Shown here one piece after another: positions 10,836-21,245 of a DNA stretch of 37,226 nt (positions are counted from its first letter, which is position 1; every line of letters starts with the position of its first letter). This DNA is from a virus. Taxonomy: Duplodnaviria > Heunggongvirae > Uroviricota > Caudoviricetes. Under the pieces are notes generated by a model. That model was not told where the DNA came from and did no database searches. It worked only from the letters and a program-made list of their open reading frames with translations. A program made the translations under genes and the position numbers. The stretch lies in the IMG/VR virus record IMGVR_UViG_2529292736_000004; one strand, given 5' to 3'.

Positions 10836-11918
10836 TTAGAACTGGTAAACCATACCTACAGCAACGATATCATCGGTAGCAACGCCAGATGCTTTCGTGA
10901 AATCGCTCTTATCAATCAGGTTGATTTTGTAATCAACAAAAGTGGACATATTTTTGTTGAAGTAATAGGTTGCACCTACATCAATATATTCAACCAGGTC
11001 CTGATCACCCCACGCACCCAAGTCTTTTCCTTTAGATTGCAGGTAAGCAACGGACGGACGCAGACCGAAGTCGAACTGATATTGTGCAACTACTTCGAAG
11101 TTTTGTGCTTTGTTGGCAATATGGTTATTACCAAAAACAGTCATGTTCTGGGTTTCAGAATAGGTGGTAGCCAGATAGATGTTGTTCGCATCATATTTCA
11201 GACCAGCTGCCCATACTTCAGCATTTTGACCAGATGCATTCAGGCTGTTGTTACCGTAGATAACCTGATTATTAGTGCGGTCAGATTTAGCATAGGTTGC
11301 ACCTACACCGAATCCTTCATACTCATAAGTAGTGGAGAAACCGAAACCATCACCATTAGCTTCAGTTACGTCAGTGCGGTCATTTTTACCCTGATACTGA
11401 GCAGCAAAGTTCAGACCATCAACCAGACCAAAGAAGTCGTTGTTACGATAAGTTGCAACACCAGTGGTGCGACCAGTCATGAACACATCTGTTTGGGTCC
11501 AGGTATCGCCACCGAATTCTGGCAGAACGTCAGTCCACGCACCGATGTCGTATGCTACACCGTAGTTACGGCCGTAATCGATTGAGCCGTAGTCACCGAA
11601 TTTCAGGCCTGCAAATGCAAGACGGGTTTTGTCTTTGGAGGAACCTTGAGATTCAGCGCGGTTGCCTTTGAATTCATATTCCCACTGACCGAAACCAGTC
11701 AGTTGATCGTTGATTTGGGTTTCACCTTTGAAGCCAAGACGGGCATAAGTAGTATCACCATCATCTGCATCATTAGAGGAGAAGTAGTGCTTAGCATTAA
11801 CTTTCCCGTACAGATCCAGCTTGTTACTGTCTTTATTATAAATTTCAGCTGCCTGAGCAGACATCGCCATCAGTACTGATGCAGCTACAGCAGAAATTGC
11901 CACTGTTAATTTTTTCAT
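10836..11918 (-). CDS. nmpC: Outer-membrane porin, OmpC/OmpF family (NmpC-like), apparently intact, 360 aa
   Basis: Signal peptide [23 protein letters not shown] followed by a classic porin sequence ([17 protein letters not shown]...GMVYQF). Antisense to the phage late operon between Q and the holin. Confidence 0.9.
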
Positions 11919-12468: not shown

Positions 12469-13359
12469 TCAGGCTGCCAGATCATCGTTTCCGATGGAAG
12501 CATAATAAGCTTTTTCTGCTTCTGCCGGTGGGATATGGCCCAGCCTTTCCAGCAATCGTCGATTGTTATACCAGTCCACCCACGTGAGTGTGGCCAGTTC
12601 CACTTCTGTCCGGTTTTTCCAGCTCTTACGGTGTATTACCTCCGCTTTGTAAAGGCCATTGATGCTCTCCGCCATCGCGTTGTCATACGAGTCACCAGTA
12701 CTTCCTGTTGATGCCAGTAATCCGGCTTCCTTAAGCCGCTGTGTGTAGGCCAGCGATACATACTGAGAACCTTTATCACTGTGATGGACTGTGCCGGACG
12801 GTCGACGGGCCCATAACGCCTGCTCCAGAGCATCCAGCACGAATGTCGTTTCCATAGACGATGAGACCCGCCACCCCACGATGTATCCGGCAAACACATC
12901 AATGATGAACGCCACATAGACGACCCCCTGCCATGTGCTGACGTAAGTAAAATCAGCCACCCACAACTGGTCAGGACGTTCTGCCACAAACTGACGGTTT
13001 ACGCGGTCGCCTGCGGCAACGGCTTTCCGGCTGACGGTAGTGCGGACCTTTTTACCCCGGAGAACACCGGCAAGTCCCATAACCGCCATGAGGCGCGCCA
13101 CTGTACATCTGGCTACCCTGATTCCTTCCCGTAACAACTGACGCCAGACTTTACGCACACCGTATACCTGATGATTCCCATCGTATACGCGCAGTATCTC
13201 TTTCTTCAGCCAGTCATCGCGCTGCGCACGGGCACTGCGTTTATCAGGATGATGTCGCTGTTGCTGACAGTGGTAATACGTTGACGGGGCAATATGTAGT
13301 TCACTGCATACCGGTCCGACCCCGTACAGCTTACGCAGCTTATCCAGCAGTGGCATCAC
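12469..13359 (-). CDS. IS629 OrfB (DDE integrase/transposase catalytic subunit), 296 aa
   Basis: IS3-family catalytic-domain sequence (…[48 protein letters not shown]…[11 protein letters not shown]…). Confidence 0.85.
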
Positions 13360-13682
13360 TTTTTCCAGAGGCGGTCGAACTCCGCCTTCGCAAAATAAGC
13401 GGAAGCCTGGCGAAGGATATCGTTACTGCGGCGCAGTTCACGATTTTCACGTTCCAGCTCTTTCAGACGCTGACGTTCAGCGGTGGTGAGCCCGCCATCA
13501 CCGCCTCCGGTATCCCGCTCATGCTGGCGTACCCAGACACGCAGAGTCTCCGGTGTACAGTCAATCTTTGGGGCAATGGAACAAATTGCCGCCCACTGTG
13601 AGTCATATTCGCCCTGACTTTCCAGAACCATACGAATCGCCCTCTGACGGACTTCGGGGGAAAAACGAGTATTTTTAGTCAT
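13356..13682 (-). CDS. IS629 OrfA (HTH transposase subunit), 108 aa
   Basis: [40 protein letters not shown]...; overlaps orfB by 4 nt, typical of IS3-family -1 frameshift elements. Confidence 0.85.
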
Positions 13683-13804
13683 CCTGTTTACCTCTTTCTC
13701 AGGGAGTTTAGTCTCCAGGATTCCCGGGGCGGTTCAGACTCCGAGTCTGTTACGTTTCGTAGTATTCCCTCAATTTACACCCGCTTTGTCTGCGAGGTGG
13801 GGTT

Positions 13805-17379: not shown

Positions 17380-17600
17380 TATCATTTTGCGGGTCCTTTC
17401 CGGCGATCCGACAGGTTACGGGGCGGCGACCTCGCGGGTTTTCGCTATTTATGAAAATTTTCCGGTTTAAGGCGTTTCCGTTCTTCTTCGTCATAACTTA
17501 ATGTTTTTATTTAAAATACCCTCTGAAAAGAAAGGAAACGACAGGTGCTGAAAGCGAGCTTTTTGGCCTCTGTCGTTTCCTTTCTCTGTTTTTGTCCGTG
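17380..17600 (+). other. cos: Lambda cos site (cosQ-cosN-cosB); 12-nt cohesive end GGGCGGCGACCT at 17421..17432
   Basis: …CGACAGGTTACG|GGGCGGCGACCTCGCGGGTTTTCGCTATTTATGAAAATTTTCCGGTTTAAGGCG… matches the lambda right-end/left-end junction; cosB runs up to the IS66 insertion point at 17608. Confidence 0.9.
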
Positions 17601-17608
17601 GAATGAAC

Positions 17609-17986
17609 GTAAGCGGCTCGCCAGAACCGTATTGATATTTACTGAGAAGTCAGATCAACTTTCCAGGGCAACAGATCGCGTACCCGGTTTGCCGGCCAGT
17701 CCTGGATATGCTCAATAACGTAACGCAGCCATTTTTCTGGCTCTACATTGTTCAGACGGCATGTGCCGATCAGCGAGTACAACACCGCCGCATGTTCGCC
17801 ACCGCTGTCGGAACCCGCGAAGAGCCAGTTTTCCGGCCTACCGCCACTCCCCGTAAGGCGTTCTCTGCGATGTTGTTGTCGATTTCCACCCAGCCATTAC
17901 TGCAGTACACGTTCAGTGCATCCCACTGTTTCAGCAGGTATGCGAACGCTTTTGCCGTATCTGAGTGACGCGACAGTGTTTTCATC
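17609..17986 (-). repeat. Partial (378-bp) copy of the IS66-family element end (terminal repeat plus tnpC 3' end), in tandem with the full copy
   Basis: 17609..17986 aligns with 17987..18364 with about five differences (for example TTTTCC versus TTTTTCC, and two changes within cagtgcatccc versus cagggcctccc); both copies start GTAAGCGGCTCGCC. Confidence 0.85.
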
Positions 17987-18016
17987 GTAAGCGGCTCGCC
18001 AGAACCGTATTGATAT

Positions 18017-19588
18017 TTACTGAGAAGTCAGATCAACTTTCCAGGGCAACAGATCGCGTACCCGGTTTGCCGGCCAGTCCTGGATATGCTCAATAACGTA
18101 ACGCAGCCATTTTTCTGGCTCTACATTGTTCAGACGGCATGTGCCGATCAGCGAGTACAACACCGCCGCATGTTCGCCACCGCTGTCGGAACCCGCGAAG
18201 AGCCAGTTTTTCCGGCCTACGGCCACTCCCCGTAAGGCGTTCTCTGCGATGTTGTTGTCGATTTCCACCCAGCCATTACTGCAGTACACGTTCAGGGCCT
18301 CCCACTGTTTCAGCAGGTATGCGAACGCTTTTGCCGTATCCGAGTGACGCGACAGTGTTTTCATCTGTTCCTGTATCCAGTCATACAGTGACTGCATCAG
18401 TGGAGCCGCTCTGGCTTTTCTTGCTGCCAGACGCTGTTCTGCTGAACATCCCCAGACTTCTGCCTCGATGACATACAGTTCACCGATACGCTGCAGGGCT
18501 TCCGTGGTGATGTCGGTTGGCACTCTTGCATGCACATCGTGGATTTTTCTCCGGGCATGGGCCATACACGCGGCTTCCGTTATTCTGCCGGATTCGTATA
18601 ACGCCCGGTAACCACCGTAAGCATCTGCCTGAAGCACACCGCTGTAACCGGCCAGGTGATTCTGTGGATGGATACCTTTCCGGTCCGGGCTGTACGCGAA
18701 CCAGACCGCCGGGGGCATCTGTGAACCGGCGTTACGGTCATCACGGACATAGACCCACAGCCGGGCAGTTCTTGTTTTACCACTGCCCGGCTCCTGGACC
18801 GGAACGGGGATATCATCCGCATGGACTTTACCGGGCATCAGCACATACTGGCGCAGCACGTCATACAGCGGCTCCAGCAGTTCAGCAACGGCACCGGTCC
18901 AGCGCCCCAGCGTGGCGCGGCTCAGTTCCACGCCCTGACGAAGGTATATTTCTGACTGGCGGTATAACGGCAGATGGTCTGCATACTTCCCGGTGACGAT
19001 ATGAGCCAGAAGCCCCGCTCCGGCATAACTGCGTGCAATGGGTTTTGAAGGTACTGGTGCCTGCACGATATGGTCGCACCGGCAACAGGCCAGTTTCGGA
19101 CGTTGTGTTTCGATAACCTTAAAAGCGCTGCTGATAAGCTCCAGTTGCTCTGACACATCACACCCCAGAGGACTGAGGTCACCACCACAGGCCGGGCAGC
19201 ATTCCTCTTCCGGCCGGATGACCCGGGTTTCACGGGGAAGTGAGGCCGGTAACGGCTTACGGGCTGAAGACTGGCGCAGGGCGGATGGCAGTACCGGGTC
19301 ATATTGCTCACCCAGCGTTTCCGCCATTTCTTCCTGAAGTGCGCTGATTCGCTCCTGGGCTTCCTGTATCTGCCGTTCGGTTTTAGCGCGAAGTTTTTCT
19401 GAGCTTTTACCGAACTGCATACGTTGCAGTTTCGCAACCAGCGCCTTCAGCCGGTTGATTTCGGAAGCATAAGCCGCCACCCGCTGTGAGAGCAGGCGGT
19501 TGTATTCAGCCATCTGGCGTATGGTGTCCTGTTGCGTCTGCAACAGTGCCCGCAGGCGGGCGTTCTCATGAGCAAGTGAGGTGTCCAT
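18017..19588 (-). CDS. tnpC: IS66-family transposase TnpC (orf3), 523 aa
   Basis: N-terminal coiled-coil/leucine-zipper region, CxxC zinc-finger-like motifs (CPACGG...CCRCDH) and a DDE-type catalytic region typical of IS66 transposases. Confidence 0.85.
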
Positions 19589-19607
19589 ATCCTCACTTTA
19601 CAACGGG

Positions 19608-19955
19608 TTATATGCGGATGCCAGCGCGTTCCGTTCGTTTCGGGTGCTTCCAGTTGATACCTTCAAGAAGCATAGATAACTGAGCCGGAGTAAGGTGCAC
19701 CTTGCCGTCACGGGTAACCGGCCAGACGAAGCGGCCCCGCTCCAGGCGTTTGGTGAAGAGGCACAGTCCGTCACTGTCAGCCCACAACACTTTTATCTGG
19801 TCACCCCGGCGTCCGCGGAAGATGAACAGATGCCCGGAGAACGGGTCATCCTTCAGGACGTTCTGAACTTTTGATGCCAGGCCGTTAAAACCATTTCGCA
19901 TGTCGGTGATACCGGCAACCAGCCAGATACGCGAACCGGCAGGGAGAGATATCAT
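19608..19955 (-). CDS. tnpB: IS66-family TnpB (orf2), 115 aa
   Basis: MISLPAGSRIWLVAGITDMRNGFNGLASKVQNVLKDDPFSGHLFIFRGRRGDQIKVLWADSDGLCLFTKRLERGRFVWP: canonical IS66 Orf2. Confidence 0.85.
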   Translation of the reverse strand: MISLPAGSRIWLVAGITDMRNGFNGLASKVQNVLKDDPFSGHLFIFRGRRGDQIKVLWADSDGLCLFTKRLERGRFVWPVTRDGKVHLTPAQLSMLLEGINWKHPKRTERAGIRI

Positions 19956-20605
19956 TAGTGGCTGCTCCCTTTCATTTCGCGGATAAGTGTCTGTAATAAC
20001 GCCGGTGTCAGTTCACCTTTCAGCCTGAGAGTTCCGGCCGGCAGAACCAGCTCACAGCACAGACTGTCGGGCGGTGTATTTATCTGTTCAGGTATCTGCA
20101 CTGGTGCCGGGATTTTATTATCCGGCTCCGGAGTTAACGTCACGGGAAGTAGCGATGTTTCATGTTCGCCGGTCGGCTGCAGGCCGCCGTTACGCCAGAG
20201 ATGCCGCCAGTTAAAGAGCAGGTTATCGTTGATTCCGTTCTCACGAGCTATTTGTGCGACACAGGCACCGGGTAAAAGAGTTTGCTGAACAAGCCTCCAT
20301 TTAAACTCCGGTGAAAATCGGTTCCGGCGGATTTTCTCTGTTTTCACAGGCTGAGTCACTGTCGGGGCTGAAGGGTATCGCCCCGGGAACAGAGCCCGGG
20401 CCAGTTGCACGCAGGAATATTCTCCGGAAAGAGGCCAGTCAGTGAATACCTGGTGAAATCGCCTCACCAGAGAAAAAATGGCGGTTTTGCTGATACCGGT
20501 CTGCGCAGAAATGCGCGGGTACGACAGTGACTCGTCAAATCTCAGTTGTAGCACACGCAGGATCAATTCCGGATTGTCTGCCAGTACCGCTTTTCGTGCA
20601 TTCAT
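19955..20605 (-). CDS. tnpA: IS66-family TnpA (orf1), 216 aa with an N-terminal HTH extension
   Basis: Contains ...RRNRFSPEFKWRLVQQTLLPGACVAQIARENGINDNLLFNWR..., typical of IS66 orfA. Confidence 0.75.
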   Translation of the reverse strand: MNARKAVLADNPELILRVLQLRFDESLSYPRISAQTGISKTAIFSLVRRFHQVFTDWPLSGEYSCVQLARALFPGRYPSAPTVTQPVKTEKIRRNRFSPEFKWRLVQQTLLPGACVAQIARENGINDNLLFNWRHLWRNGGLQPTGEHETSLLPVTLTPEPDNKIPAPVQIPEQINTPPDSLCCELVLPAGTLRLKGELTPALLQTLIREMKGSSH

Positions 20606-20699
20606 CTTAAATGTCCCTTTACTGCGAAAATGGACATTAGTATCGGAAACAGGAAAGGGAGGCGAAAGACGGTTTAAATGAGACGGTTACGAATGAACA

Positions 20700-21219
20700 A
20701 TGGAAGTCAACAAAAAGCAGCTGGCTGACATTTTCGGTGCGAGTATCCGTACCATTCAGAACTGGCAGGAACAGGGAATGCCCGTTCTGCGAGGCGGTGG
20801 CAAGGGTAATGAGGTGCTTTATGACTCTGCCGCCGTCATAAAATGGTATGCCGAAAGGGATGCTGAAATTGAGAACGAAAAGCTGCGCCGGGAAGTTGAA
20901 GAACTGCGGCAGGCCAGCGAGACAGATCTCCAGCCAGGGACTATTGAGTACGAACGCCATCGACTTACGCGTGCGCAGGCCGACGCACAGGAGCTGAAAA
21001 ATGCCAGAGACTCCGCTGAAGTGGTGGAAACCGCATTCTGTACTTTCGTGCTGTCGCGGATCGCAGGTGAAATTGCCAGTATTCTCGACGGGATCCCCCT
21101 GTCGGTGCAGCGGCGTTTTCCGGAACTGGAAAACCGACATGTTGATTTCCTGAAACGGGATATCATCAAAGCCATGAACAAAGCAGCCGCGCTGGATGAA
21201 CTGATACCGGGGTTGCTGA

Positions 21220-21245
<26 letters not shown>
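20700..21245 (+). CDS. Nu1: Terminase small subunit Nu1, 181 aa
   Basis: MEVNKKQLADIFGASIRTIQNWQEQGMPVLRGGGKGNEVLYDSAAVIKWYAERDAEIENEKLRREVEELRQA... matches lambda Nu1. Confidence 0.95.

Follow-up and report, generated by a model that had tools for sequence, protein, structure and literature searches.

Tn1721 and Tn1722, a pair of Tn3-family transposons whose structure is traced back to two copies of one element or of a relative of it (PMC5736529), offer a described parallel for the locus examined here, in which a truncated copy of an IS66-family insertion sequence is fused head to tail to a complete one. The layout is shared, with two right ends in direct orientation, a single left end and a truncated transposase gene at the extra end, and in both cases either the whole unit or the minor element transposes and makes its own target duplication, which for our composite is suggested by comparative evidence. 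The differences are equally plain. Tn1721/Tn1722 follows the replicative transposition of the Tn3 family and leaves a 5-bp duplication, whereas the composite belongs to IS66 and leaves 8 bp; and Tn1721 carries tet cargo between its two right ends, where the composite has only a 379-bp tnpC remnant and no passenger gene. Neither passenger genes nor a Tn3-family transposase or resolvase were found in the composite, the proteins of which are of the IS66 family, and it is therefore an analogue of Tn1721/Tn1722 rather than a member of the group.

A second parallel is provided by IS30 and IS911, for which nested or abutting insertions and the targeting of IS ends have been described. Here the likeness lies in a composite that adjoins a full ISCro1 in plasmid pWS4437A1_42 and in clustered insertions in the plasmid leading region, but the cases are few and the targeting of IS ends by IS66-family transposases is only putative. 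The terminal inverted repeats of IS66-family elements begin with 5'-GTAA, a rule in connection with which Han et al. 2001 and Gourbeyre et al. 2010 are reportedly named. To our knowledge, the biochemistry of transposition in this family is poorly characterised, and a literature search turned up no account of either this composite or the IS66 transposition pathway. Insertion of IS66-family elements duplicates 8 bp of the target (PMC6778807). The composite resembles most directly the ISCro1 group of Citrobacter rodentium and E. coli, with which it has in common the gene order tnpA-tnpB-tnpC, the 8-bp target duplication, terminal repeats starting with GTAA and a TnpC with DDE_Tnp_IS66, zf-IS66, LZ and C-terminal domains, while the extra right end with its 379-bp truncated tnpC sets it apart from standard IS66-family elements, which have none.

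A doubled right end in a lambdoid prophage

The window, by which we mean the whole stretch of DNA analysed, is the entire 37,226-bp contig AIHJ01000015.1 of the draft assembly GCA_000250395.2, and represents a lambdoid prophage (Table 1). From left to right it carries a porin gene, an IS3-family element, genes for holin, lysozyme, Rz and a KilA-N protein, a cohesive-end 12-mer and the composite, to the right of which lie Nu1-like and GpA-like terminase genes followed by portal, head and tail genes. The 12-mer GGGCGGCGACCT at 17421-17432 is taken to be cosN from what is known of phage lambda.

Table 1. Features of the prophage locus and the sites of the composite in plasmids
Feature	Coordinates	Strand	Remarks
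Lambda-type cohesive-end 12-mer, GGGCGGCGACCT	17421..17432	+	about 180 bp left of the insertion
Left target-site duplication, 8 bp, GAATGAAC	17601..17608	.	identical to 20691-20698; empty site has one copy
Partial copy A, 378 bp	17609..17986	-	outer right terminal inverted repeat and last 115 tnpC codons
Outer right-end terminal inverted repeat, GTAAGCGGCTCGCCAGAACCGTATTG	17609..17634	+	end used in this insertion; target duplication abuts
Complete IS66-family element B, 2704 bp	17987..20690	-	ISCro1 relative
Inner right-end terminal inverted repeat	17987..18012	+	identical to the outer one in this window
tnpC, DDE transposase, 523 aa	18017..19588	-	PF03050 1.7e-102; PF13817, PF13005, PF13007
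tnpB, IS66 accessory protein, 115 aa	19608..19955	-	PF05717 4.7e-40
tnpA, helix-turn-helix accessory protein, 216 aa	19955..20605	-	PF01527
Left-end terminal inverted repeat	20665..20690	-	reverse complement GTAACCGTCTCATTTAAACCGTCTTT
Right target-site duplication, 8 bp, GAATGAAC	20691..20698	.	1 bp upstream of the start codon at 20700
Nu1-like terminase small-subunit gene	20700..21245	+	PF07471 Phage_Nu1; nohD DNA-packaging protein in empty-site annotation
Composite site, target duplication TAATCAGA			8 complete copies, common F-like leading-region backbone
Composite site, target duplication GAACAGGA			pWS1933D_83; 12 bp from the TAATCAGA site
Composite site, target duplication ATATTAAC			p504239_155
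Composite site, target duplication GTATAATC			pWS4437A1_42

The segment at 17609-17986 (copy A, 378 bp) is directly repeated, with a spacer of 0, at 17987-18365 (379 bp), as established by a repeat search and direct alignment, and the two meet at 17986/17987 in the junction ...GTTTTCATC|GTAAGCGGCTCG... Each unit of the repeat contains the right terminal inverted repeat together with the final 115 tnpC codons. Direct alignment of copy A with the start of the complete element, B, gives four substitutions and one 1-base indel in a T run, a divergence of about 1.3%; the five are confined to the inner 160 bp (copy positions ~221-355), and over the first 220 bp the copies agree completely. Exactly two occurrences of the 20-nt terminus GTAAGCGGCTCGCCAGAACC are present in the window, where shuffled sequence leads one to expect 0, and while Tandem Repeats Finder returned no rows over the region, the repeat search and the direct alignment are unambiguous. 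The duplicated right end is itself real beyond doubt.

Much of this had been read from the letters beforehand. An earlier note on this DNA described a head-to-tail double right end of an IS66-family element consisting of the terminal repeat plus the tnpC 3' end, with about five differing positions and about 1.3% divergence and with the target duplication adjoining the partial copy, and all of this is confirmed, the opposite duplication adjoining the left end of the full copy. Of the coordinates it gave, 17609-18364, the start stands and the end falls one base short of 18365 owing to the indel.

B has the features expected of an IS66-family element. Pfam identifies tnpA (HTH), tnpB (IS66 Orf2-like) and tnpC (DDE) as consecutive genes; the terminal repeats are imperfect, about 20-30 bp long and start with 5'-GTAA, with 17 of 26 positions matching between right and left (GTAAGCGGCTCGCC... 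vs GTAACCGTCTCATT...); and 8-bp target duplications are present in the window, at four further sites of the composite and at two sites of a short form, both described below.

The GAATGAAC duplication brackets the entire 3082-bp composite, partial and full copy together. When the composite and one of the two 8-mers are deleted in silico, the resulting 610 bp match, at 100% identity, a prophage site in E. coli FDAARGOS_536 that has no insertion. The composite has entered the interval from cos to the gene for the terminase small subunit, 1 bp upstream of the ATG at 20700, so that 3.1 kb of inserted DNA now separates cos from the terminase genes and the sequence just upstream of the nu1 start codon has been replaced. 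Expression of the terminase, or packaging, may be impaired by this.

The same junction in plasmids of enterotoxigenic E. coli

Copies of the composite elsewhere were sought with a 60-nt probe centred on the junction between A and B, counting full-length matches. Among 5426 complete E. coli genomes, nine contained the junction, in 12 plasmid records and 0 times in a chromosome, and a further search of PLSDB returned 15 plasmids; all of the junction-bearing plasmids in both collections belong to human ETEC. The exact junction pattern was absent from the GTDB representative genomes, the IMG/VR viral contigs, the JGI metagenomes and the GenBank phage collection, which suggests that only a small group of E. 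coli carries the composite.

For comparison, 13 plasmid copies of the composite were extracted. The plasmid form is 3083 bp long, against 3082 bp in the window, and a perfect 8-bp duplication surrounds each of the 13 with two exceptions: L019, the left end of which lies outside the fetched locus, and L001, the two flanks of which carry TAATCAGA and ATATTAAC respectively, as would be expected if two composites had recombined. With the window counted, the composite and its identical internal junction occupy five sites, four in plasmids and one marked by GAATGAAC in the prophage, each with a duplication of its own, although four of the five are on related ETEC plasmids and two of these are only 12 bp apart on the same backbone, so that truly independent events are few. 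No extended homology common to the five sites was found in the flanks examined.

Copies within single strains are especially informative. In strain WS4437A-1, the copies at the TAATCAGA and GTATAATC sites (L007 and L008) are identical, down to a block of 37 ISCro1-type SNPs, and in strain WS1933D the copies at TAATCAGA and GAACAGGA (L005 and L006) are likewise identical. Variants that are specific to a strain and common to its copies at different sites point to recent transposition of the unit within single strains, and perfect 8-bp duplications round the same composite at five sites point to its transposition as a unit in general. On this comparative evidence, partial and full copy together appear to move as one unit of about 3.1 kb. 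The B of the window is identical at 2704 of 2704 positions to the B of the composite on ETEC plasmid pTW10590_102, and the two composites are the same everywhere except in copy A.

Evidence for three usable ends

B is also found alone, as a 2704-bp short form. A copy in the chromosome of strain 504239 is flanked by the target duplication CATTCTTC, and another in plasmid p504239_155, in inverted orientation and abutting the TAATCAGA site, by GGGCAGCA; both are 100% identical to the B of that strain's composite. A third, in the chromosome of strain 300709, has its left end outside the fetched locus and carries two SNPs that are private to that strain's composite. Since long and short forms each have target duplications of their own, both right ends have been used, and B alone would appear to transpose in the same strains as the composite, giving the element three usable ends.

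The comparison also indicates how the two forms arise. The transposase appears to have paired the left end of B with either of the right ends, each event generating an 8-bp target duplication; choice of the outer, ISCro1-derived end mobilises the 3083-bp composite, and choice of the inner end the 2704-bp element alone. The window records one event at the outer end, by which the composite landed in a lambda-like prophage.

Origin of the partial copy

Throughout the plasmid copies examined, 14 positions (3.7%) distinguish the partial copy from the opening 379 bp of B, whereas its identity to the right end of ISCro1, as annotated by NCBI, is 100%. ISCro1 is widespread in E. coli, with 1859 records matching at >=99%. 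The comparison of B with ISCro1, for which we used elements annotated as such, gives nucleotide identities per 100 bp of 91-100% over the first 2100 bp and of 42-78% over the last ~600 bp. At the protein level TnpB is 100%, TnpC 97.7% and TnpA 55% identical, the N-terminal half of TnpA and the ~600 bp proximal to the left end being the parts that differ. The terminal repeats of the two elements are nearly identical over 24 nt, which, together with the 97.7% identity of TnpC, makes cross-recognition of their ends plausible. The label that the NCBI pipeline gives to B is only 'IS66 family transposase'.

Since the plasmids' partial copy is the right end of ISCro1 and departs from B at 14 positions out of 379, two related elements must have gone into the original composite. 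The most economical route would be a single insertion of B, in the same orientation, into a copy of ISCro1 after ISCro1 position 379, where the presumed target is TTTTCATC; the left end of B would then have been paired with the outer right end, that of ISCro1. The ancestral junction that this route predicts, with the left end of B followed by TTTTCATC and ISCro1 from position 380 on, was not found in the 5426 complete E. coli genomes. We consider it very probable that the locus is such a three-ended composite, in which a 379-bp right-end fragment of ISCro1 is fused to the right terminal repeat of a full B. The earlier note had weighed two possibilities, that a composite transposed as a unit or that two related elements were inserted in succession with loss of the sequence between them. 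Both prove right, each for its own stage: the second holds for the original build, with its ISCro1-type partial copy, and the first for later spread, given the five sites with identical junction and perfect 8-bp duplications.

A probable recombinant outer end in the prophage copy

Copy A of the window is a mosaic. At the first 11 variable sites (13-216) it has B-type alleles and at the last three (310, 313 and 355) ISCro1-type alleles, and it is further marked by a T deletion at ~221 and by G>C at 235. These two changes, which lie within the interval of exchange, are private to it: a search for a third donor variant found neither of them in any of ~4900 copies of the segment in complete genomes. 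The 1-base deletion breaks the reading frame into ORF pieces of 71 and 47 aa, and the 71-aa frameshifted ORF is unique to this contig in a large gene-position collection.

Copy A thus appears to be a recombinant, the outer part of which, at least 216 bp, is B-type. A single exchange or template switch between the two direct repeats, somewhere within positions 216-310, would produce this structure, either by unequal exchange between the direct repeats followed by use of the new end or by a template switch during copying. Simple internal gene conversion is less likely than a single exchange, because the B-type tract ends within 12 bp of the outer edge of homology and there is almost no homology outside. 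Exchange of the outer at least 216 bp lowers the divergence from 14 differences to five, so that the 1.3% reported in the earlier note, which is correct as measured, is a remnant of the 3.7% of the plasmid form and not the full original difference.

These particulars come from a draft contig, and errors of consensus or of sequencing may explain in part the identical first 220 bp, the G>C change and the deletion in the homopolymer. One may accordingly ask whether the duplication is real but everything specific to the window is consensus error, the true sequence being of the plasmid type with 14 differences. This is unlikely, though it deserves some weight: beyond the draft origin, both private changes are missing from the ~4900 complete-genome copies, and the rest of the window composite matches that of pTW10590_102. 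It would, however, need 11 converted sites, amounting to ~5% divergence over ~220 bp, to have been merged where assemblers usually keep such sequences apart, and the true alleles would be present in any reads that extend from the unique cos flank. The finished genomes bear on the same question, as tracts exchanged between ISCro1 and B are common in them, at B positions 418-1024 in L007/L008, 190-1970 in L018 and 1435-1576 in L015, the last of which is also present in the window. With comparable tracts in finished sequence, a real exchange in copy A is credible.

Other explanations for the locus

A further question is whether the composite is anything beyond a passive accident, be it an incipient transposon, the source of a trans-acting regulator made from the TnpC fragment, or the outcome of targeting to target-site duplications and hot spots; taken together, we think this improbable. 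With regard to the first, the outer ISCro1-type end could turn the composite into an IS66-family transposon in the making, which might take up DNA between the two right ends. The second concerns the remnant gene. The breakpoint between A and B lies exactly at an in-frame tnpC ATG, and the partial copy of the plasmids encodes an intact 115-aa C-terminal fragment of TnpC (the end of PF03050 plus PF13817) in an ORF 31 nt downstream of the full tnpC, intact in all plasmid copies examined; that it acts in trans as a truncated-transposase regulator is possible but unsupported. The length of this ORF had also been considered as a marker for the composite and was rejected, as degraded IS66 copies with no relation to the composite also yield 115-aa fragments, cluster P0016 being one such remnant. 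As for the third, transposases of the ISCro1 group may be drawn to the 8-bp duplication that flanks a copy already in place, as well as to a few structural hot spots. In pWS4437A1_42, where the composite adjoins a full ISCro1, the same 8-mer is present three times, and insertions are clustered, three of them in a 30-bp stretch of the F-like leading region and two in a 20-bp stretch at cos-nu1. A plasmid with ISCro1 alone at the GTATAATC site would order the two insertions, but the search for one returned pWS4437A1_42 itself and no other.

That the strain has a single IS end, doubled by a repeat-induced error of assembly, is highly improbable. The window is a whole draft contig of 37,226 bp, draft assemblers can place a repeat consensus twice, a deletion in a T run is a typical homopolymer error and the 71-aa frameshifted ORF occurs in no other contig of the gene-position collection. 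Yet the same junction and breakpoint are found in ~15 independently finished plasmid sequences, and near the junction the window has three ISCro1-type alleles that are missing from B and that a duplicated consensus would not give. The worry about an artefact raised in the earlier note is thereby removed for the junction itself.

Two separate insertions at the prophage site, of an ISCro1-like element and then of a second one inside it, with local deletion of the intervening sequence, can be practically discounted; the composite is indeed made of two related elements, but the same breakpoint would be needed independently at five sites, and both the 100% identity of the window's B to that of a plasmid composite and the pairing by the 8-bp duplication of the partial copy's end with the left end of B point to a single insertion of a preformed unit. 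Equally hard to credit is duplication of the end in place, by slippage or unequal exchange at the prophage locus followed by divergence through point mutation, which would suit the head-to-tail arrangement, the spacer of 0 and the 98.7% identity but not the identical junction at four other sites in other strains, the ISCro1-type partial copy of the plasmids with its 14 differences from B, or a target duplication that flanks the composite; the three ISCro1 alleles retained in the window show descent from a plasmid-type composite and not a local origin, and the case made beforehand against a simple recent tandem duplication holds good on these alleles and on the junction at the four other sites.

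Significance for IS66-family elements

Events of the kind seen in the three-ended composite, in which a nested insertion yields an alternative end, are ordinary for mobile DNA; this one is unusually well documented, as nature has supplied replicates. Judged from sequence comparison, it offers natural evidence that either of two right ends can be selected by an IS66-family transposase, and that the DNA lying between them can be moved. Such movement of extra DNA between two right ends would be a first step from an insertion sequence towards a cargo-carrying transposon. For annotation, the pseudogene labelled 'IS66 family transposase, incomplete' that accompanies a complete copy in ETEC plasmids belongs to a mobile unit and should not be taken for debris, and the junction provides a lineage marker that ties the prophage insertion to the backgrounds of ETEC virulence plasmids. 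The locus also illustrates how fast the ends of insertion sequences can be reshaped by recombination between paralogous copies.

Exchange among IS66-family paralogues

Finished genomes indicate that gene conversion is frequent between IS66-family paralogues sharing a genome, with blocks of ISCro1-type alleles being embedded in elements that are otherwise of the type of B, the complete IS66-family element (Table). When B is compared with ISCro1, TnpB is 100% and TnpC 97.7% identical, whereas TnpA is 55% identical, with N-terminal halves that differ, and the ~600 bp proximal to the left end differ as well; the tnpA/left-end region therefore looks like a module exchanged within the ISCro1 group. 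A composite (ISCro1 right-end fragment plus B) in plasmid p504239_155 has TAATCAGA as its left flank and ATATTAAC as its right, without a duplication; these mismatched flanks are the mark left when two copies of the composite recombine homologously, an event in which ~400 bp of plasmid backbone was deleted or rearranged.

Features of the window and comparison loci (L numbers)
Feature	Locus	Position	Context
ISCro1-type block	L007/L008	B 418-1024	
ISCro1-type block	L018	B 190-1970	
ISCro1-type block	window, also L015	B 1435-1576	window 19421-19562
tnpA/left-end comparison	window vs L008	19955-20690 vs 2313-3043	B vs ISCro1
Cluster insertion	L014	10607-13310	leading region, between ssb pseudogene and hok
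Cluster insertion	L002	3729-6811	same
Cluster insertion	L005	3052-6134	same
Recombinant composite	L001	3729-6811	p504239_155
ISCro1/composite pair	L008	337-6142	pWS4437A1_42
ISCro1 in nu1	L004	4222-6936	EC130 chromosome
Composite end to terminase ATG	window	20691-20702	
Window site to EC130 site	window	20691-20720	
IS3-family element	window	about 12469-13690	HTH_Tnp_1 and rve ORFs

Choice of target

Three separate ISCro1-group insertions are held by a 30-bp stretch, CAGGGCAGCAGTAATCAGAGTCAGAACAGGAGG, in F-like plasmids of ETEC, namely an inverted short form (B alone) with the target-site duplication GGGCAGCA and composites with TAATCAGA and GAACAGGA, and this part of the leading region looks like a strong local hot spot for insertion. 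In pWS4437A1_42, a full ISCro1 and a composite form a head-to-tail pair delimited by three copies of the octamer GTATAATC, one on the left side of ISCro1, one separating the two elements and one on the composite's right side. One of the two elements therefore used precisely the other's target duplication as its own insertion site. A search for a plasmid with only ISCro1 or only the composite at the GTATAATC site found none.

A second lambdoid prophage, on the chromosome of E. coli EC130, has acquired an ISCro1 independently; this insertion, with the duplication CAAAAAGC, lies inside nu1, the terminase small-subunit gene, in the same orientation as the window's composite and only 20 bp from its site, which suggests that the cos-nu1 area is regionally preferred for insertion.

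Consequences for the prophage

Besides the composite, the window carries an IS3-family element in the interval from the porin gene of the prophage (10836-11918) to its holin gene (13805), and the prophage has therefore received at least two IS insertions. The terminase small-subunit ATG stands 1 bp downstream of the composite end, the native sequence upstream of the gene, past the 8-bp duplication, having been displaced, and cos is now 3.1 kb from the terminase genes. Judged from this arrangement, the composite insertion may have impaired terminase expression or packaging.
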